The notes under the pieces were generated by a model that saw nothing but the letters and a program-made list of their open reading frames with translations, did not search any database and was not told the DNA's origin. The translations under genes and the position numbers were made by a program. From positions 6,624-70,623 of the forward strand of contig CAZNTR010000002.1 in the NCBI GenBank assembly GCA_964575925.1: a stretch of DNA of 64,000 nucleotides, read 5' to 3'. Every line of letters starts with the position of its first letter. Position 1 is the stretch's first letter. The DNA is from an uncultured Chitinophagales bacterium. GTDB lineage: Bacteria; Bacteroidota; Rhodothermia; Balneolales; M1805. Shown in pieces: positions 3,684-44,194 of the stretch.

Positions 3684-5042
3684 ATGCGCGAATTACTCGA
3701 AATCGGAAAACGTGGCATGTTTGCCAATCAGAAATCACTTGAAGTGGTAGGGCAAAATGTTGCTAATGCAAATACTCCCGGTTACTCGCGTCAACGTGTT
3801 GAGCTAGAAGCAATTGAATTTAGAAAAGGTGGTCTCTCTGTTGGCTTGGGAGTAAACGTTGAAACAGTTAAGCAACTTCGTGATACTCTTGTAGAAACTC
3901 AGATACAATCAAAAGAAGGGGATTTGGGCGGATATAATGAACAAATTAAATTGTACGAACAACTAGAAGTTCTTTTTGCAACGGGTTCTGACAACGATTT
4001 AGATAAACTCATAACCAAATTCTTCAATTCCTTTTCAGAATTGTCGAATAATCCTGAGAGTTTGGCTTTAAGGGAAAGTGTAGTGTTTTCAGCACAAAAC
4101 ATGACTTCACGATTTAATGAAATTTCAGCCAATTTAGATGCAATAAAAGATTCCCTTTCAAAAGAATCTACTACATTAGTTGGTGAAGTGAATCGATTAA
4201 CATCGGATATTGCAAAATTAAACGTTCAAATTGCAAATGTATCAGGAACAGGACAAGCAGATAATAAAGCGCTCGATTTACGAGCTATGCGTCTAAATGA
4301 GCTTTCTAAACTTGTAGCTATTAATACGATTTATAGTAATAATGGATCAGTAGAAGTTCGAATCGGTAATTTAGTGGTTGTTCAGCACGACAGAGTATTT
4401 AATGTTGAGCCTGAAATTGATAGCACAAATAACGCTCTTCGACTTCGTTTAAATAATGGTAGGACCCTAAAGAATGTTGGCGGTAAATTAGGTGCAATGA
4501 TTGATTCTTATGAAACAACTTTACCGGGTTTCAAAACAAAAGTAGATACATTAGCGTCAAATTTAGTATCTAAAGTAAATCAGGTACATGTTAATGGGTT
4601 CAACTTAAATGATACCACAGGAATTGAGTTTTTTAATCCAAGTGGAACAACAGCTTCAACAATTGCTTTAAATTCACAAATCGTTGATAGTGTAAGTTTA
4701 ATTGCTGCTTCTGATACTTCCGGTGCACTGGGTAACAATACCGCTGCAAGACAAATATTTACTTTGCTAGATAGTTCAAGTGCAGTTGGCGATAAGTCGT
4801 TTATAGAATATAGTCTAAGTATAGCTGCTGAAACAGGATTTACGATAAGCTCATTACGAACACAAGTAGAATCGGTTAGTTCATCCAAATTGATGCTAGA
4901 GAATCAAAAACTTGATGCCTCAGGCGTAAATATGGACGAAGAACTGGCAAATATGATTAAGTTTCAAAATGCTTATCAGGCTTCTGCTAGAGTAATTGCT
5001 TCAGTGCAAGTTATGTATGATACCGTTTTGAGCTTGGTTTGA
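3684..5042 (+). CDS. flgK: Flagellar hook-associated protein 1 FlgK
   Basis: N-terminal GMFANQKSLEVVGQNVANANTPGYSRQRVEL and C-terminal SGVNMDEELANMIKFQNAYQASARVI signatures. Confidence 0.9.
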   Translation: MRELLEIGKRGMFANQKSLEVVGQNVANANTPGYSRQRVELEAIEFRKGGLSVGLGVNVETVKQLRDTLVETQIQSKEGDLGGYNEQIKLYEQLEVLFATGSDNDLDKLITKFFNSFSELSNNPESLALRESVVFSAQNMTSRFNEISANLDAIKDSLSKESTTLVGEVNRLTSDIAKLNVQIANVSGTGQADNKALDLRAMRLNELSKLVAINTIYSNNGSVEVRIGNLVVVQHDRVFNVEPEIDSTNNALRLRLNNGRTLKNVGGKLGAMIDSYETTLPGFKTKVDTLASNLVSKVNQVHVNGFNLNDTTGIEFFNPSGTTASTIALNSQIVDSVSLIAASDTSGALGNNTAARQIFTLLDSSSAVGDKSFIEYSLSIAAETGFTISSLRTQVESVSSSKLMLENQKLDASGVNMDEELANMIKFQNAYQASARVIASVQVMYDTVLSLV

Positions 5043-9745: not shown

Positions 9746-10816
9746 CTACGAATACCTCTCGTGTAATGCTCTTACGGCATCAATTATAGCAGAAGATATC
9801 TCATTAATATGTAAAATTTGATCAACAGCCCCTAATTTTATGGCCTCTTTAGGCATTCCATAAACAACACAACTATCTTCATTTTGTGCGATATTATGTG
9901 CTCCTTTGTCATGCATCTCTTTCATGCCAATTGAGCCATCTCCGCCCATACCCGTTAACATTACACCAATTGTATTATTGCCAGCAACCGAAGCAACAGA
10001 GTGAAATAATACATCAACAGAAGGTCTATGATGATGAACCATGGGACCTTCTTTAACCTGAACAAAATAGTCTGAACCACTTTTTTTCAAAAGCATGTGA
10101 TAATTTCCAGGCGCAATTAAAACTCTTCCCATTAAAACACGATCACCGTCTTCCGCCTCTTTAACGTCTAAGGGTACTAGTGAATTTAAGCGTTCAGCAA
10201 ATGCAGTTGTGAATTTAGGAGGCATGTGCTGTACTATAACAATTCCTGGGGAATCAGCAGGGAGACCCATTAAGACTTGTTTTAAAGCTTCAGTACCCCC
10301 TGTGGAAGCTCCCATTGCAATAATTTTATCTGTAGTATGCTTTAGGCCACCTAGATTTAAAGGAGTATTAATCTCAGGAGGTTTTTGAGGAATAACAGGT
10401 GGTTCAAAAAGATGTTTGTTTTTCATGTTGGCTTTTGCTGCAGCTCTAATAACTCGAGCTAATTGCAAGGTTAAATCACCAACTGAATAGGAACCACCAG
10501 GTTTACAAAGAACTTCTACCGCCCCAGATTCTAAGGCTACCATTGCAAGATCACTACCTTGTTTTGTAAGTGAGCTAATTATGATTACAGGTTTAGGGAA
10601 GAATCGCATTATCTTTTTTAAGAATGTAATTCCATCCATACGAGGCATTTCCACATCAAGCGTAATTACGTCGGGGTTCAGACGTACAATCTTGTCTCGG
10701 GCAACATAAGGGTCTATTGCGGAGCCTACAACCTGAATATCCGGGTACTTATTTAGATCTTCAGTTAATTTTTTTCTAACTATTGCGGAGTCGTCAACGA
10801 CAAATACCCGGATCAT
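9746..10816 (-). CDS. cheB: Chemotaxis methylesterase/deamidase CheB (REC + CheB_methylest)
   Basis: N-terminal REC (IRVFVVDDSAIVRK, LDVEMPRMDG). Catalytic domain GASTGGTEAL, HMPPKFT, GMGGDG. Confidence 0.92.
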   Translation of the reverse strand: MIRVFVVDDSAIVRKKLTEDLNKYPDIQVVGSAIDPYVARDKIVRLNPDVITLDVEMPRMDGITFLKKIMRFFPKPVIIISSLTKQGSDLAMVALESGAVEVLCKPGGSYSVGDLTLQLARVIRAAAKANMKNKHLFEPPVIPQKPPEINTPLNLGGLKHTTDKIIAMGASTGGTEALKQVLMGLPADSPGIVIVQHMPPKFTTAFAERLNSLVPLDVKEAEDGDRVLMGRVLIAPGNYHMLLKKSGSDYFVQVKEGPMVHHHRPSVDVLFHSVASVAGNNTIGVMLTGMGGDGSIGMKEMHDKGAHNIAQNEDSCVVYGMPKEAIKLGAVDQILHINEISSAIIDAVRALHERYS

Positions 10817-20854: not shown

Positions 20855-21709
20855 TTACCTACTTAGGAAACCTAAAACAGCCTGAGGTGCGGCATTTGCT
20901 TGAGCTAATGAAGCGATAGCAGTTTGTTGCAAGATTTGCAATTTAACGGCTTCACTTTGAGTTTTAGCAAAATCTGCATCACGAATTCTACTGCGAGCAG
21001 AAGAATTACTGTTTACCGCTTGAGTAAGGATTTCCTCGCGGATGGAAAGCTGTGTTTGGTAAATACCTAATTGATTTACAGCACCAGCAAGGAGATTGAT
21101 AGCAACATCGATACTAATCATAGCTGATTGAGCAGCTAAGAATGAAGTAACATCAACACCAGCAATACCTAATCCAGAAGCTGTAAAACTAGCTACACCA
21201 TTTGCATTTCCAGAAGTTAATTGAACATTGATAGTATCAGCTGTTCTTTCACCAACTTGAAAAGTTGCATCGTATGTTCCAAGAAGAATATTTCTACCTT
21301 GAAAAACGGTTTGAGTAACTAAGGAGTCTAATTCACTCACTAGGCTATCAACCTGTGCTTGAATAAAATCACGTTCGTCAACACCGTAAGTATCGTTTGC
21401 AGCTTGAGTAGCTTTAGTTTTTAACGTTGTTAGAATATCTAAAACAGAATTCATACTAGCTTCTGCAATATCCAAAACTGATTTTGCGTCACCTGTGTTG
21501 GCAAGAGCTTGCTCTAAACCAGCAATACGTGAACTCAATTTTGCAGAGATTGAAAAACCTGCAGCATCGTCTTCTGCTTTATTAATACGGAATCCAGTTG
21601 ATAATTGTAACTGAGTAATTCCGAGTTTTTTGTTAATCCTGTCTAGAGAAAATCTAGATTCTAGGGATTGAACATTCGTATTAATACGATTAAAATCGCC
21701 GAATGCCAT
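20855..21709 (-). CDS. fliC: Flagellin, copy 3 (284 aa)
   Basis: N-terminal RINTNVQSLESR...GFRINKAEDDAAGFSISAKL. C-terminal IRDADFAKTQSEAVKLQILQQTAIASLAQANAAPQAVLGFLSR. Confidence 0.93.
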   Translation of the reverse strand: MAFGDFNRINTNVQSLESRFSLDRINKKLGITQLQLSTGFRINKAEDDAAGFSISAKLSSRIAGLEQALANTGDAKSVLDIAEASMNSVLDILTTLKTKATQAANDTYGVDERDFIQAQVDSLVSELDSLVTQTVFQGRNILLGTYDATFQVGERTADTINVQLTSGNANGVASFTASGLGIAGVDVTSFLAAQSAMISIDVAINLLAGAVNQLGIYQTQLSIREEILTQAVNSNSSARSRIRDADFAKTQSEAVKLQILQQTAIASLAQANAAPQAVLGFLSR

Positions 21710-21740
21710 AATATAGCTCCTTCTATTTTATTTAAGAATA

Positions 21741-21760
21741 AGACCCCTTCCTTGGGATCT
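21741..21760 (-). promoter_or_regulatory. Leader hairpin presenting GGA in its loop (candidate CsrA site and/or attenuator) upstream of flagellin copy 3
   Basis: Minus-strand RNA AGAUCCC-AAGGAA-GGGGUCU: 7-bp stem including one U-G pair, hexaloop containing GGA. The second GGA sits in the SD AGAAGGAGC (21716-21724), 28 nt downstream. Confidence 0.5.
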
Positions 21761-21773
21761 TTTTGTTGTTTGC

Positions 21774-22622
21774 TTAAGCAGAGATAAATCCAAGAACAGC
21801 TTGTGGAGCAGCATTAGCTTGCGCTAATGAAGCAATAGCGGTTTGTTGAAGGATTTGAAGTTTTAACACCTCACTCTGCTCTTTAGCAAAGTCTGCATCG
21901 CGGATTCTGCTTCGCGCTGAGGAATTTGAATTAATAGCTTGGGTCAGAATTTCTTCCCTAATGGAAAGTTGAGTCTGATAAATACCAAGATTATTAACGG
22001 CTCCTGCAATATAATCTATTGCACTATCGATACTTACCATTGCTAATTGTGCACTTGCAAATGAACTAACGTCTAAAGCATCGATTTCCAAACCTGAAGC
22101 AGTAAAACCTGCGTCTGCTCCTCCAGAAGTTAATTGAACATTAATGACATCTGCACCGCGTTCACCAACTTGGAAGGTTGCATTGTAAGTTCCACCTAAT
22201 AATGATCGACCTTGATATACTGTTGTGGTTACTAATGAGTTTAGCTCATTTACTAAACTATCAATTTGATCTTGAATAAATTGACGCTCATCAACACCGT
22301 AAGTGTCATTGGCCGCTTGTGTTGCTTTTGTTTTCAAGGTTGTTAAAATATCAAGCATCGAATTTAAACTCGATTCTGCGATATCTAATACAGATTTTGC
22401 ATCTCCAGTATTCGATAAACCTTGCTCTAGTCCAGCAATACGAGAACTTAATTTTGCCGATATTGAAAACCCTGCTGCATCGTCTTCCGCACGATTAATG
22501 CGAAAACCAGTAGAGAGTCTCAATTGGGTTATACCAAGCTCTTTATTGATTTTGTCCAGAGAAAATCTAGATTCCAATGTTTGTACATTGGTATTAATCC
22601 TGTTAAAATCTCCGAAAGCCAT
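21774..22622 (-). CDS. fliC: Flagellin, copy 2 (282 aa)
   Basis: Same conserved termini as copies 1 and 3. Divergent central segment. Confidence 0.93.
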   Translation of the reverse strand: MAFGDFNRINTNVQTLESRFSLDKINKELGITQLRLSTGFRINRAEDDAAGFSISAKLSSRIAGLEQGLSNTGDAKSVLDIAESSLNSMLDILTTLKTKATQAANDTYGVDERQFIQDQIDSLVNELNSLVTTTVYQGRSLLGGTYNATFQVGERGADVINVQLTSGGADAGFTASGLEIDALDVSSFASAQLAMVSIDSAIDYIAGAVNNLGIYQTQLSIREEILTQAINSNSSARSRIRDADFAKEQSEVLKLQILQQTAIASLAQANAAPQAVLGFISA

Positions 22623-22657
22623 AAAAGCTCCTTCTTTTTGATTGTTTCTGTTAGAAT

Positions 22658-22673
22658 GCCCCGTCCCTGAGGC
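22658..22673 (-). promoter_or_regulatory. Leader hairpin presenting GGA in its loop (candidate CsrA site) upstream of flagellin copy 2
   Basis: Minus-strand RNA GCCUC-AGGGAC-GGGGC. The SD AGAAGGAGC (22627-22635) lies 32 nt downstream. The hairpin sits just downstream of the sigma-28-like -10 box. Confidence 0.5.
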
Positions 22674-22681
22674 AATCTATG

Positions 22682-22709
22682 TTATCGAACAATCTGAAAA
22701 TTCTTTAAA
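22682..22709 (-). promoter_or_regulatory. Sigma-28 (FliA)-type promoter for flagellin copy 2
   Basis: Minus strand reads TTTAAAGAATTTTCAGATTGTTCGATAAC: TAAA, 16 nt, CGATAA. Consensus is TAAA-N15-GCCGATAA, i.e. 17 nt between TAAA and CGATAA. Confidence 0.6.
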
Positions 22710-22802
22710 TCGGAAATTTGTTTTCACAAAAATTAAGTCAAAGAACAAAGGAGACTTTTAGAGTCTTTGGAGAATTGGGACGGGTTGGGACTAACAGAGA
22801 AT

Positions 22803-22841
22803 CAAAAAGCCCTAAGCCGTTTAACCTATTCAGGCTTAAGG
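22803..22841 (-). terminator. Rho-independent terminator after flagellin copy 1
   Basis: Minus-strand RNA CCUUAAGCC-(14-nt loop)-GGCUUAGGG followed by CUUUUUGAU. 9-bp stem with one wobble pair. Confidence 0.65.
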
Positions 22842-22861
22842 TTTAAAACGAGGGTTAATTT

Positions 22862-23707
22862 TTATTGTAAGAATCCAAGAACTGCCTGTGGTGCTGAGTT
22901 AGCTTGAGTTAGTGAAGCGATAGCCGTTTGTTGTAAAATTTGCAACTTAACGGCTTCACTTTGTTCTTTAGCAAAATCTGCATCTCGAATTCTGCTTCTT
23001 GCTGAAGAGTTAGAATTAATAGCTTGAGTAAGAATTTCTTCACGAATTGAAAGCTGAGTTTGATAAATACCAAGATTATTAACCATGCTAGCTACTCCAT
23101 TTATAGCTCCATCAACATTTGACATAGCTATTTGTGAGTTTGCATTTGAGTCCACAAGTAGAGCGTTAACACCAAGACCAGTTGAATCGAAACCAGTTCC
23201 TGAAGTACCTGAGAAAATTTGAACGTTGATTACATCAGCTGTTCTTTCACCAACTTGGAATGTTGCATCGTAAGTACCTGCAAGTAAAGAACGACCTTGG
23301 TAAACAGTTTGACTGATTAATGAATCTAATTCGTTAATTAAGCTATTTACTTGACTTTGAATAAAGTTGCGTTCATCAACACCGTAGGTATCGTTCGCAG
23401 CTTGAGTTGCTTTCGTTTTAAGAGTAGTTAAAATATCTAGGATGCTATTTAAGCTAGATTCTGCAATGTCTAAAACTGATTTTGCATCACCTGTATTTGC
23501 CAAAGCTTGCTCTAAACCTGAAATTCTAGAACTTAATTTTGCAGCAATTGAAAATCCAGCAGCATCATCTTCTGCTTTATTAATTCTAAAACCTGTTGAA
23601 AGTTTTAATTGAGTATTACCAAGTCTTTTGTTGATTTTATCCAATGAAAATCTTGACTCAAGAGATTGTACATTAGTGTTAATCCGGTTAAAATCTGCGA
23701 ATGCCAT
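22862..23707 (-). CDS. fliC: Flagellin, copy 1 (281 aa)
   Basis: MAFADFNRINTNVQSLESR...GFRINKAEDDAAGFSIAAKL and C-terminal QANSAPQAVLGFLQ. Confidence 0.93.
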   Translation of the reverse strand: MAFADFNRINTNVQSLESRFSLDKINKRLGNTQLKLSTGFRINKAEDDAAGFSIAAKLSSRISGLEQALANTGDAKSVLDIAESSLNSILDILTTLKTKATQAANDTYGVDERNFIQSQVNSLINELDSLISQTVYQGRSLLAGTYDATFQVGERTADVINVQIFSGTSGTGFDSTGLGVNALLVDSNANSQIAMSNVDGAINGVASMVNNLGIYQTQLSIREEILTQAINSNSSARSRIRDADFAKEQSEAVKLQILQQTAIASLTQANSAPQAVLGFLQ

Positions 23708-39872: not shown

Positions 39873-42290
39873 CTACACTAACTTACGTTTAATGCTTAGA
39901 ATATAAACCATTCCAGTTGTGAAAACCAAAACAGTAATTGAGCTTAATGGCATAAGGATAGCTGTTAAAAGAGGGGATAATAAACCCAAAACAGCTAAGG
40001 TTACACCAATAATATTATATAAGAAGGATATAGTATAGGATGCATAAACTACTTTATTCGCATCATTTGATAATTGAAGCATTGCATCTAAACGATAAAT
40101 ATGTTCTGCTTGTAGAATGCCATCGCATCCTGGTGAAAAACTATGCACATCATCACTAATTGCAATACCTACATCTGCTGCTTGTAATGCACCTGCGTCA
40201 TTTAGTCCGTCTCCAACCATTAGCACGAGTTCATCAGTTTTTTCTCTTTTTATGCGCGAAATGATATTCAATTTATCTTCGGGTTTACAATCAAAATTAC
40301 TTTCATGAAAAGAATCAAAAAGAGTTTTTACTGGTCCTGAATTTGGTTTAGTATCACCTGATAATCCAATTAATTTTAAACCTGATTGTGCAAGTTTGGA
40401 AATAGTCTCAGCAGAACCAGCTCGTAAAATTTGCTCGAAAATAAATGCACCGTATAAATGTTCATCGATTCCTATATAAGTTTTGGTAGCATGGCCAATA
40501 TAATCTTGTGCTTCAATTCCGTTTGAATTTAGCCATTTTTCACTTCCAATAAGTACTTTTTTATTACCAAAGACAGCTTTAATTCCCATTCCTTTAACTT
40601 CAACAAGTTCGTCGGGAAAATGCTTTTCCTTTGATTTTAAAAAATTAACAATTGCAAGACTTAAGGGGTGTGTAGAAGACATTGCAGCTGCGGCTATAAG
40701 TTGTACCTCATGATCTGATAAATCTCTACCTATCCATTTTAAAGGCAAATTTCCCGATTCTGTTAATGTACCCGTTTTATCAAAAACAATTGTTTTGATT
40801 TTAGAAAGTTGATCAACAATTCTCTCAGAACGCAAATACAAACCATTTTTAGAAAATGTATTTAATACAGAGCCCATAGTGAATGGTATTGAAAGCGATA
40901 GGGCACAAGGACAGGCTACAATTAAAACGGCTGCAAGAACGTGAACGGCTTTCATTGTATCAGTTGATTGCCAATAAAAAAATCCAGCAAATGCAATTGC
41001 CAAAATAACCCAAGTAAAATAGGGGGAAACCTTATCGGCTAAAGAAACATGATTGGTCAATTTATCTTGTTTAAACACTTCGTGATTCCAAAGTTGAGTT
41101 AGATAACTTTGATCCACAGTTTTTTGAATAAAAAATTGAGCTTCTTGACCTTTAAGTCGACCACCAGCAAATACCTCATCAGCTTTTTTGATGTTAACTG
41201 GTGCCGATTCACCTGTTACAAAATGATAATCAATACTTGCTTTTTCACTAATTAATGTAGAATCTGCAGGGATAAGTTCTTCATTTCGTACTCGAATTAC
41301 ATCCCCTTTATTCAACTTCGCTAAAGGAATTGCTTTAAATCCATCTTCAATTTTTACGAAAACAGACATAGGGAAATAAGAACGATAATCACGGAAAAAT
41401 GAAATAGCATGGTAAGTTTTTTGCTGAAATAATTTACCAATCAATAAAAAGAAAATTAGTCCCGTAAATGAGTCGAAATAACCTGAGCCACTTTTACTCA
41501 TAAGTTCATAAGCACTTTGCGCAAACATAGCAAAAATGCCAATTGTAAGAGGTACATCCATCGTTATACGATGACTTTTAATGCTATACCAAGCACTTTT
41601 CCAATAATCTTCTGCGCTAAAAACTAAAACGGGTACACTAATTAGTGCACTTAACCAAGTAAAAATACTTCTGAGGTATTCACTGTATAAATCTAAGCCC
41701 AAATAATCTGGAAAACTGTAGAGCATCACATTGCCAAAAGCAAAGCCTGCTAAACCAAGCTTTAAATACGTTCTTCTCCAGGGTTTTTTCGAATCCGCTT
41801 CATTTTCTAAGTCGCTTAATTGAATCATTGGTTCATAGCCAAGCCAAGCAAGTAATTGAACCACGGAACGAACTGAAATTTCAGTATGGTTAAACCAAAC
41901 ACGTATTTCTTTGCGTAGATAATCTACTTCAGATTTTAAGATTCCTTTTTTAAGAGAGGGGAGTTTTTCTAATAACCATACGCAGGAAGCACAATGAATA
42001 TCAGGAATGTAAAAACTTACAAGCGATTGTTTTTCATCGCTATATTTAATTAATGCTTTTGAAGCTTCAGGGTCGTCTAGCCAATCAAATTTTTCAGAAT
42101 CGGCTGAATATTTTCTCTCTCCAGGTCTGTCTTCCATAGTATAGAAAGAATCAAGACCACTTTCAGTAAGTAATTGATATACTGATACACAACCATTACA
42201 ACAGAATGCTTTTCCATCGTGAAAAACAGGAGCGCCATTATTATCTGTGCCACAATGATAGCAAGTAGTTTGTTGAACGGGAGTTTCCAT
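39873..42290 (-). CDS. ccoI: Copper-translocating P1B-type ATPase CcoI/FixI
   Basis: N-terminal Cys-rich CYHCG...CCNGC, HMA-like CASC, TM CPC (VACPCAL), DKTGTLT, GDGLNDAGAL. Confidence 0.92.
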   Translation of the reverse strand: METPVQQTTCYHCGTDNNGAPVFHDGKAFCCNGCVSVYQLLTESGLDSFYTMEDRPGERKYSADSEKFDWLDDPEASKALIKYSDEKQSLVSFYIPDIHCASCVWLLEKLPSLKKGILKSEVDYLRKEIRVWFNHTEISVRSVVQLLAWLGYEPMIQLSDLENEADSKKPWRRTYLKLGLAGFAFGNVMLYSFPDYLGLDLYSEYLRSIFTWLSALISVPVLVFSAEDYWKSAWYSIKSHRITMDVPLTIGIFAMFAQSAYELMSKSGSGYFDSFTGLIFFLLIGKLFQQKTYHAISFFRDYRSYFPMSVFVKIEDGFKAIPLAKLNKGDVIRVRNEELIPADSTLISEKASIDYHFVTGESAPVNIKKADEVFAGGRLKGQEAQFFIQKTVDQSYLTQLWNHEVFKQDKLTNHVSLADKVSPYFTWVILAIAFAGFFYWQSTDTMKAVHVLAAVLIVACPCALSLSIPFTMGSVLNTFSKNGLYLRSERIVDQLSKIKTIVFDKTGTLTESGNLPLKWIGRDLSDHEVQLIAAAAMSSTHPLSLAIVNFLKSKEKHFPDELVEVKGMGIKAVFGNKKVLIGSEKWLNSNGIEAQDYIGHATKTYIGIDEHLYGAFIFEQILRAGSAETISKLAQSGLKLIGLSGDTKPNSGPVKTLFDSFHESNFDCKPEDKLNIISRIKREKTDELVLMVGDGLNDAGALQAADVGIAISDDVHSFSPGCDGILQAEHIYRLDAMLQLSNDANKVVYASYTISFLYNIIGVTLAVLGLLSPLLTAILMPLSSITVLVFTTGMVYILSIKRKLV

Positions 42291-42358
42291 ATACTAATTA
42301 AGATAAAAGACTCCCAATAAAAAAGCGAATAAATTTTCTTAAATCTGCAATATATTTT

Positions 42359-42478
42359 GAGACTAAAGTCTCTAATTTGCTAAATGGTACGAGACTGAAG
42401 TCTCGCACCAAACCAAAATATTTTATAGCGCTAGACTTTCGTCTCGTGCTATAAAAGCAAAAAAGAGACTTCAGTCTT
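42359..42478. repeat. REP module L: four GAGACT(GA/TC)AGTCTC palindromes in about 120 bp
   Basis: gagactaaagtctc (42359-42372), cgagactgaagtctcg (42390-42405), degenerate tagactttcgtctcg (about 42432-42446), gagacttcagtctt (42465-42478). Confidence 0.9.
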
Positions 42479-42480
42479 TA

Positions 42481-43029
42481 TTATTCTATTAAAACCAATG
42501 GCAGTAAATTCCTTAGTCCCGCATATTCTTTAGCACTGCTATAAACCCAATCTTCAGCTTGATCAACAAAGCCTGCTTTCACTGGATTTTGGTGAATATA
42601 ATCTAAGGCTTTATCCATTTGCTCATTTTTTTCCAAAATAATTGGGTGATTATGTTGTTGCCAAACTTGATAATGATGATTGTGGCAATTTTGTTGACCA
42701 TTGGATTTTAGTATCCACTTCAACCAATTTCTACGACTTTCTTTTGGATTATCAATAATTATTTCAAGCAATTGAACAGAAGTGAATTTCTTCAAATCAC
42801 GCATTATATAGCTTAATTTATTAGTTTCACTACTTGCAATTAAATGAACATGATTGGTCATTATGCACCACGAATGAAGAATTAATCCTTTCTTTTCTAT
42901 GCAAAAAGCTAAACTGTTAACAAAAGTGTCGTAATAAATGCGACGAGTGAAAATGTCTATCCATTCAACTGTTGAAAAGGTGATAAAATGTGGGTTTCTT
43001 GAATCATAAAATTTGTATTTGCGGCTCAT
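42481..43029 (-). CDS. REP-associated tyrosine transposase (RAYT; IS200/IS605 Y1 HUH family)
   Basis: 182 aa. HUH motif in IMTNHVHLIASS. Conserved Tyr context DWVYSSAKEY. Flanked on both sides by palindromic repeats. Confidence 0.85.
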   Translation of the reverse strand: MSRKYKFYDSRNPHFITFSTVEWIDIFTRRIYYDTFVNSLAFCIEKKGLILHSWCIMTNHVHLIASSETNKLSYIMRDLKKFTSVQLLEIIIDNPKESRRNWLKWILKSNGQQNCHNHHYQVWQQHNHPIILEKNEQMDKALDYIHQNPVKAGFVDQAEDWVYSSAKEYAGLRNLLPLVLIE

Positions 43030-43093
43030 AAATTTTCCTTTTTGGAATAGAGACGCTTGAAAACGAAAAATCTTCCCAAAAAAATAAAAAAAT

Positions 43094-43208
43094 GAGACTG
43101 ATGTCTCTAAATCGCTAATTTAGTACGAGACTGAAGTCTCGCACCAAAATTATTTAGCGCGAGACTTCAGTCTCGTGCTGATAAAGCAGAAAAGAGACTT
43201 CAGTCTCG
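43094..43208. repeat. REP module R: four GAGACT(GA/TC)AGTCTC palindromes
   Basis: gagactgatgtctc (43094-43107), cgagactgaagtctcg (43126-43141), cgagacttcagtctcg (43160-43175), gagacttcagtctcg (43194-43208). Confidence 0.9.
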
Positions 43209-43270
43209 ATTTGTAAAACAAATGAGGGAATTATCGAGTATTTTAGCAGATAAATCAAAAAAACGAATTC

Positions 43271-44095: not shown

Positions 44096-44124
44096 ATTTT
44101 CGGATGTCGGATTTGATTTATTTT

Positions 44125-44194
44125 CCAGCCTCCAGCCTCCAGCCTCCAGCCTCCAGCCTCCAGCCTCCAGCCTCCAGCCTTCAGCCTTTCACCT
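44125..44194. repeat. Heptanucleotide microsatellite (CCAGCCT) x8 perfect, plus 2 degenerate units
   Basis: Perfect units span 44125-44180, followed by tcagcct and ttcacct. Lies between the cysE stop (44095) and the peptidase start (44273). Confidence 0.95.

Follow-up and report, generated by a model that had tools for sequence, protein, structure and literature searches.

What is a transposase-like gene of 182 codons doing between cysE and ccoI, and why is it flanked on both sides by similar clusters of short palindromes? The question is raised by a stretch of 64,000 nucleotides (nt) from contig CAZNTR010000002.1 of an uncultured Chitinophagales bacterium (assembly GCA_964575925.1); this whole stretch is referred to below as the window. 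A first-pass annotation had read the gene as a REP-associated tyrosine transposase (RAYT, or TnpA_REP) accompanied by its cognate repetitive extragenic palindromes (REPs), and this identification holds: the protein passes the family model, has the HUH (histidine-hydrophobic-histidine) and tyrosine residues and the fold of the Escherichia coli enzyme, and the palindromes are dispersed elsewhere. We consider with high confidence that the locus is a REPtron, in which a single-copy, vertically inherited, ‘domesticated’ HUH/Y1 gene of subclass 2.6 is flanked on both sides by cognate REPs. Direct support for this reading comes from family membership and key residues, flanking and dispersed copies, covariation within the stems, gain and loss of repeat units, and purifying selection on the gene. 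Coordinates of the features are collected in Table 1.

The protein scores 97.7 bits against the NCBIfam equivalog NF047646 (REP_Tyr_transpos; cutoff 80, residues 5-164 covered) and 27.5 bits against the Pfam domain Y1_Tnp. A database search returned 1178 relatives, mostly of exactly 182 residues. Their source names are RayT or REP-associated tyrosine transposase, and they come from Balneolaceae, Fodinibius, Fulvivirga and Bacteroidia, with the nearest named ones in Balneolaceae, Fulvivirga and Bacteroidia. A single-sequence phmmer search of the Protein Data Bank (PDB) placed spurious MBT-domain matches above the structure of E. coli TnpA_REP (4ER8); a profile built from 32 homologues removed the problem and matched 4ER8 only (E = 1.2e-6). 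The AlphaFold model (mean predicted confidence, pLDDT, 92.4) also has 4ER8_A as its top PDB match in Foldseek (E = 1.6e-7, template-modelling (TM) scores 0.65/0.70), followed by the ISDra2, IS200 and IS608 transposases; the sequence identity to 4ER8 is only ~17%.

The active-site residues can be assigned from the same alignments. Among the positions invariant in the 32 homologues are H60, H62, W123, Y144, H146, N148, P149 and S164-S165. In the profile alignment to 4ER8, NHVH falls on EHMH and DYIHQNP on DYIYINP, so that Y144 corresponds to Y115 and N148 to N119. The first-pass annotation had pointed to the HVH motif and to the tyrosine of a ‘YSS’ context. The histidine pair is indeed invariant, whereas the tyrosine has to be relocated: Y163, the one in ‘VYSS’, is replaced by H, N or F in some homologues and is therefore not the nucleophile. 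By alignment, the catalytic residue is predicted to be Y144 within DYIHQNP, and the serine pair S164-S165 is a separate conserved motif of the C-terminal tail. Thus, once the tyrosine is correctly placed, all the HUH and Tyr residues are present and invariant.

A finer classification is also possible. Subclass 2.6 of Quentin et al. 2018 (PMC6006769), which equals RAYT group 5 of Bertels et al. 2017 (PMC5581495), is defined by NH[LIV]H, WQ, YIH[QN]NP, an SS pair in the proximal tail, a mean length of ~179 residues and an insertion between alphaC and beta4 (PMC6006769). The window protein has NHVH (59-62), WQ (123-124), YIHQNP (144-149) and SS (164-165), and its model shows an extra helix (99-111) between alphaC and beta4. 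Judged by sequence, it is a RAYT/TnpA_REP of subclass 2.6 carrying every motif of the subclass.

The two flanking modules, L and R, were described in the first-pass annotation as direct copies, by eye about 85% identical. The alignment agrees (85% mean column identity) and includes a 26-nt stretch, GTACGAGACTGAAGTCTCGCACCAAA, that is identical between them. With up to one mismatch allowed, the palindrome GAGACTNNAGTCTC occurs seven times in the window, all within modules L and R, against a chance expectation of 0.06; none of 100 shuffles reached seven. The GA and TC orientations of the central dinucleotides are as had been noted, and so is the degeneration of the eighth palindrome, the third of module L (42430-42447, three mismatches). 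The inner pair of palindromes had been proposed to fold as a longer stem; it does, and in fact each module as single-stranded DNA forms one long hairpin on either strand. Folding energies range from -28.5 to -39.5 kcal/mol (z from -6.9 to -10.3 relative to shuffles), with -38.7 kcal/mol and z = -10.2 for module R, in which two arms of 60 nt each (43089-43148 and 43153-43212), 75% complementary, are separated by 4 nt. Rfam searches of the RAYT locus and of the REP-bearing loci found no real family; the only matches, of miRNA precursors to the long hairpin, were below threshold.

Each module is an imperfect inverted dimer of a ~55-nt two-hairpin unit, an arrangement resembling a REPIN (REP doublet forming a hairpin). 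More precisely, each module joins a ‘type 1’ unit (GGT-A..C-ACC) head to head with a ‘type 2’ unit (AGC-A..C-GCT) and is thus a heterodimer. The first-pass annotation regarded such a composite module as a departure from the textbook arrangement. This view has to be given up, since Table S1 of Quentin et al. lists for Belliella baltica a composite hairpin of 122 nt whose palindromes are of the CAGTCTTCAGACTG and CAGTCTGAAGACTG types (PMC6006769), a direct published precedent for a structured module of this kind.

The anatomy of the unit was derived from 30 distinct aligned copies. The outer hairpin comes first, then the spacer aatttgcWtttt and an inner hairpin, with the consensus tGAGACTtaAGTCTCtaatttgcattttGGTACGAGACTGAAGTCTCGCACCaaa. 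The outer stem varies in a compensated manner (GAGACT/AGTCTC, AAGACT/AGTCTT, AAGTCT/AGACTT, GAGATT/AATCTC). The inner hairpin, CGAGACT-GA-AGTCTCG, is nearly invariant; the invariance of its core is due to ascertainment, as the inner core served as the search pattern. Its 3-bp foot covaries (GGT/ACC, AGT/ACT, AGC/GCT). Between foot and core there is an invariant A.C mismatch, which becomes a G.T wobble on the complementary strand, GGTGCGAGACTTCAGTCTCGTACC. Overall, 88.7% of the stem cells are paired, compared with 22-44% when the partners are slid. Compensatory changes occur in both stems, with covarying pairs 8-21 (GC 19, AU 9), 39-58 (UA 23, CG 7) and 37-60 (GC 12, AU 8), and the covariation exceeds that in all of 500 shuffles. 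The canonical 5' GT[AG]G at the hairpin foot is absent from all 30 aligned units. Instead, the foot reads GGTA/AGCA on one strand and GGTG/AGCG on the other, in agreement with Table S1 entries (PMC6006769).

Copies outside the RAYT locus were sought by scanning metagenomes with the inner 18-mer ACGAGACTGAAGTCTCGC. The scan returned 44 stretches, with 37 sites lying in contigs of 30-38% GC content; the REP-bearing contigs come from the same sample series that holds the identical RAYT protein. After the three RAYT loci were dropped and orthologous sites merged, ~20 distinct sites were left. The tetranucleotide composition of their contigs correlates with that of the window at r = 0.72-0.95 (all above 0.79 except L067), compared with 0.92 between the two window halves and 0.53-0.65 for other low-GC Bacteroidota loci. 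The expectation that the palindrome recurs in intergenic DNA is therefore borne out in contigs of the same lineage: all ~20 sites are intergenic, each adjoins the 3' end of at least one open reading frame (ORF), and none lies between divergent ORFs, with ORFs counted from stop to stop only. As found by the exact 18-mer, 19 of 20 are singlet units lacking an inverted partner within 250 nt. Two sites deviate, L067/L069 being a full dimer and L056 having extra tandem hairpins. Inverted doublets that fold as one hairpin are seen in both RAYT-flanking modules and at L067/L069.

Five of the ~20 units (L057, L059, L076, L084 and L086) contain the 3' half of the inner hairpin and its tail as a short direct repeat; for example, ACTGAAGTCTCGCACTAAA is present twice in tandem in L059 and AGTCTCGCGCTAGGTTTT twice in L086. 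These duplications could be either slippage products or footprints of cleavage and rejoining.

The same 18-mer was also observed farther afield. A scan of species-representative genomes with ACGAGACTGAAGTCTCGC revealed a multi-copy two-hairpin element in Rufibacter spp. and Sabulibacter ruber (L015, L017-L018, L020-L022, L024-L034, L036-L039, L041-L042), including 11 loci in Rufibacter sediminis; the window's own genome was not among the matches. This dispersed element of Hymenobacteraceae differs from the window unit, having the form ggCGAGTCTggAGACTCGcttcatcc..gtcACGAGACTGAAGTCTCGCgccag. The Chitinophagales metagenome-assembled genome (MAG) STL-BAC16 has two ACGAGACTGAAGTCTCGC copies (L012, L035) within an 85-nt repeat. 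A tblastn search with the RAYT protein covered 8 kb around the copies in Rufibacter, Sabulibacter and Chitinophagales and found no RAYT there. We considered the identical 18-mer in Rufibacter as a sign of horizontal transfer and set this idea aside, because GCGCGAG...CTCGTGC is common to the whole subclass and the few remaining bases may coincide by chance.

How long has the gene resided at this junction? The first-pass annotation spoke of an element inserted between the cbb3 cluster and cysE. The identical RAYT protein is always found between cysE and ccoI; the cysE-RAYT-ccoI context is present in at least 24 contigs and in three lineages, and it is the only one in the at least 48 contigs read. 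RAYT proteins of 92% identity occupy the same junction in two further lineages, L043/L080 and L071, the latter sharing 85% nucleotide identity with the window over 10.6 kb. Relative to these sister lineages, the ratio of nonsynonymous to synonymous divergence (dN/dS) of the RAYT gene is 0.045-0.057 at dS 0.67-0.90, close to that of cysE and ccoI (~0.06 at dS 0.50-0.55). The same junction in three lineages, at dS 0.5-0.9, and the purifying selection therefore indicate a fixed, vertically inherited gene and not a demonstrated recent insertion. As to an empty junction, no RAYT and no REP precede ccoI in relatives whose CcoI is 78%, 69% and 67% identical. These three are non-syntenic upstream of ccoI; no empty site can therefore be defined, and insertion and rearrangement are both possible. 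The comparison of the junction between relatives, which had been proposed at the outset, revealed RAYT in three lineages and, among the farther, non-syntenic relatives, no unoccupied counterpart.

Module R varies between lineages by entire hairpins. Modules are ~85-95% identical between lineages while synonymous sites have diverged to dS 0.5-0.9. In L080 (~4384-4465) and L071 (~10451-10530), module R has three hairpins only; in both, the loss corresponds to a ~32-nt deletion that fused adjacent GAGACTGAAGTCTC copies, affecting opposite arms.

Next to module L, the ~68 nt up to the start of ccoI (42291-42358) are 100% identical between the window and L043, despite a dS of 0.55 for ccoI. The proximal part of this segment, ..gaatttattcgcttttttattgggagtcttttatcttaatta, is kept also in L096, whose CcoI is 78% identical. 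The segment is probably a conserved promoter or leader element of ccoI.

Cognate pairing of enzyme and repeats is also seen across the family. We compared the RAYT loci of Fodinibius halophilus, Fulvivirga sp. M361, a 5.3-Mb genome (L050), an NCBI MAG contig and a Balneolaceae MAG. Each homologue is flanked by its own, different palindromes (CAAGTT..AACTTG; CAGGTTC..GAACCTG; CGAGTC..GACTCG together with CGAGTT..AACTCG; CAAGTG..CACTTG). Despite these differences, at least one hairpin in every locus examined except L050 has a common foot, tGG[C/T]G-C...G-T[G/A]CCa, with the G.T wobble. Table S1 shows the same foot for subclass 2.6 entries from Spirosoma (GCTGGCGCGAGC..GCTCGTGCC), Zobellia, Aequorivita and Flexibacter, and RAYTs of this subclass have already been described as flanked by atypical structures (PMC6006769). 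Our search for later literature (after 2018) on RAYTs and REPs specific to Bacteroidota found nothing relevant.

With regard to mechanism, a model can be drawn from established knowledge of E. coli TnpA_REP and the TnpA proteins of IS200/IS605 (PMC6006769). By homology with these enzymes, the RAYT would bind the hairpin folded from single-stranded DNA, such as the lagging-strand template. Y144 would then cut and rejoin the DNA at the foot of the hairpin through a phosphotyrosine intermediate, with the catalytic metal presumably held by H60, H62 and N148. REP units would thus be copied or moved to new intergenic sites, and the RAYT gene itself would stay put. Enzymatic activity, the choice of strand, the positions of the cuts and present-day mobility are all features that we infer by homology.

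Several observations weigh against the REPtron reading or at least restrict it. The rest of the 64-kb window has no further REP copy, and the density is low in comparison with E. coli or Pseudomonas. For the dispersed copies, the sources are metagenome contigs that belong to at least three sister lineages; their assignment to the lineage was made by sample origin and composition and not through a closed genome. Being almost all singlets, these copies do not fit the REPIN model, which takes the doublet as the unit that replicates. Moreover, some REP sites are orthologous between lineages (L052 and L077, for example), so that many copies must be old, and current mobility is something we infer. 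We also know of no biochemical evidence for any enzyme of subclass 2.6.

It might be argued that the units are primarily host regulatory elements, such as terminators, stabilizers of mRNA 3' ends or protein-binding sites, which are kept by selection and whose link to RAYT is secondary or historical. The location of all ~20 dispersed sites next to an ORF 3' end, and of none between divergent ORFs, agrees with such a role. So do the terminator-like scores of two module R hairpins, the preservation of stems by compensatory change, the persistence of orthologous copies and the high identity of the modules at dS 0.5-0.9. However, most units have no T-run, and a purely regulatory origin leaves unexplained both why each examined RAYT homologue has its own lineage-specific hairpin and why the foot with its invariant mismatch is common to them. 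In addition, a regulatory role is compatible with RAYT-driven spread and is no alternative to it; E. coli REPs are established to have such secondary host roles (PMC6006769). As a replacement for the REPtron reading, we therefore consider this explanation improbable.

Still less probable is an autonomous insertion sequence (IS) of the IS200/IS605 type, which would transpose as a 0.85-kb whole with the modules as its left and right ends. The Y1_Tnp domain, the hairpins just beyond both ends of the gene, the similarity of the fold to the TnpA proteins of IS608 and ISDra2, and the lack of a RAYT upstream of ccoI in the next relative (CcoI 78% identical) could all be interpreted in this way. On the other hand, the IS200 equivalog NF033573 reaches only 20.7 bits with the window protein, below its cutoff of 55, and there is no tnpB. 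In every contig, and in three lineages, the RAYT gene has a single location, and its dN/dS is typical of housekeeping genes. Its flanks are direct copies of one quasi-palindromic module and not distinct ends, and the ~20 dispersed sites hold the 55-nt unit alone, with no RAYT gene. For practical purposes, these observations refute the insertion-sequence interpretation. Finally, the palindromes might have gathered by chance in AT-rich intergenic DNA, next to a gene to which they have no relation. Nothing speaks for this except the low GC content of the window (34%), and it can be dismissed in view of the seven palindromes against 0.06 expected and none of 100 shuffles, the identical 26-nt stretch and the presence of the unit at ~20 other loci.

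Within the REPtron reading, a more specific proposal can be made, which we put forward as a speculative one with the chances against it. It combines three statements. First, the spreading unit here would be the ~55-nt two-hairpin singlet, composed of a variable outer and an invariant inner hairpin, and not the REPIN doublet. Second, subclass 2.6 RAYTs may recognize one strand through the family-wide foot GG[C/T]G...T[G/A]CC, whose G.T wobble (A.C on the other strand) is invariant from this lineage as far as Cytophagales, Flavobacteriales and Balneolales. Third, the 3' half-hairpin duplications, seen at five of ~20 sites, may have been left where DNA was cut and rejoined within the hairpin or next to it.

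The comparison with known systems helps to place the REPtron of the window. It resembles other members of subclass 2.6/group 5 (PMC6006769, PMC5581495) in all motifs, in length (182 residues against a mean of 179) and in the extra alphaC-beta4 helix. Other shared traits are the low copy number, the non-GTAG ‘atypical’ flanking hairpins that recur elsewhere in the genome, and the foot AGCG-C...G-TGCT with a G.T wobble, as in the Spirosoma, Zobellia, Aequorivita and Flexibacter entries. It differs in its host and in the two-hairpin unit, the type 1/type 2 heterodimer and the mostly singlet population, which are described here for this lineage only and which we did not find spelled out in the text of PMC6006769. 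The host is an uncultured, deep-branching, Bacteroidota-like lineage. Within its own small clade, CcoI (ccoI, 39873-42290) shows identities of 100, 86, 78, 69 and 67%, whereas the nearest CcoI outside the clade is only 45% identical, with names from Balneolales, Ignavibacteria, Melioribacter and Bacteroidota.

With the REPtron of E. coli K-12 (subclass 2.2, 4ER8), the locus shares a single-copy HUH/Y1 gene, the fold and catalytic residues, and intergenic REPs located mostly at gene 3' ends (PMC6006769). Both also have inverted REP pairs of two slightly different types, the type 1/type 2 pairs recalling the Y/Z2 pairs of E. coli bacterial interspersed mosaic elements (BIMEs). Unlike in E. coli, there is no 5' GTAG guide at the window locus; the foot is GG[C/T]G..T[G/A]CC and contains a wobble or mismatch, two hairpins make up each unit, and the REPs are far sparser, being absent from the other 63 kb of the window. 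In Pseudomonas fluorescens SBW25, inverted REP doublets likewise flank a single-copy, vertically inherited RAYT gene and fold as one long hairpin (PMC3116915). However, in the REPIN model the doublet replicates and singlets are its decay products (PMC3116915), whereas here 19 of 20 dispersed sites are singlets. Elements of the IS200/IS605 family (IS608, ISDra2) share the HUH/Y1 catalytic core and, if the analogy holds for the RAYT of the window, the recognition of subterminal hairpins in single-stranded DNA. In contrast to them, the RAYT gene is not multi-copy, falls below the NF033573 cutoff, lacks distinct left and right ends as well as tnpB, and does not move with the repeats.

Table 1. Coordinates of the RAYT gene, its motif codons and the flanking REP modules in the window
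Feature	Position	Strand	Description and evidence
RAYT/TnpA_REP gene, assigned to subclass 2.6 (Bertels group 5)	42481..43029	minus	182 aa; NF047646, Y1_Tnp, 4ER8-like fold, dN/dS
HUH motif codons, H60-V61-H62 inside NHVH	42844..42852	minus	codons read directly; invariant His pair
Codon of the predicted catalytic Tyr144 (DYIHQNP)	42598..42600	minus	invariant motif; aligned to 4ER8
One copy of the ~55-nt two-hairpin unit (dispersed form)	42357..42412	plus	outer hairpin, spacer aatttgc..., inner hairpin with foot
Module L	42359..42478		3' of the RAYT stop, upstream of the ccoI leader; inverted dimer, one degenerate hairpin
Module L, outer hairpin	42359-42372
Module L, inner hairpin	42389-42406		GGT-A..C-ACC
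Module L, inner' hairpin	42430-42447		degenerate
Module L, outer' hairpin	42465-42478		one mismatch
Module R	43089..43212		inverted-repeat limits (43094-43208 as direct repeat); divergent RAYT/cysE intergenic region; complete four-hairpin inverted dimer
Module R, hairpins	43094-43107; 43125-43142; 43159-43176; 43194-43207

Two further observations in the window concern neither the RAYT gene nor its repeats. A tandem repeat of the heptamer TCCAGCC (44124-44193) lies between the cysE stop (44095) and the start of an S9-peptidase gene (44273). Among the contigs with the identical RAYT protein, it has 9 (window, L009), 12 (L002, L005), 13 (L003, L004, L010) or 15 (L001) units, and in the sister lineages 5-6. 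The repeat may be a phase-variable spacer ~80 nt upstream of the peptidase gene. Elsewhere, positions 20864-23518 hold three tandem paralogous units of ~1 kb, in which two blocks of ~270-300 nt occur three times each with 72-78% identity and a spacing of 913-1085 nt; this is probably a tandem gene family.

The locus leaves the current picture of RAYT and REP biology unchanged, as its arrangement has already been catalogued for the Bacteroidetes-type transposase subclass. What it adds is a well-resolved REPtron from an uncultured, deep-branching lineage to a subclass whose REPs are known just as ‘atypical’ by manual inspection. The REP population is small (tens, not hundreds of copies), and the three sister lineages display unit loss, fusion and partial duplication. 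Together, these properties make the system a tractable case for establishing the mobile unit as well as the strand and the foot read by the enzyme.

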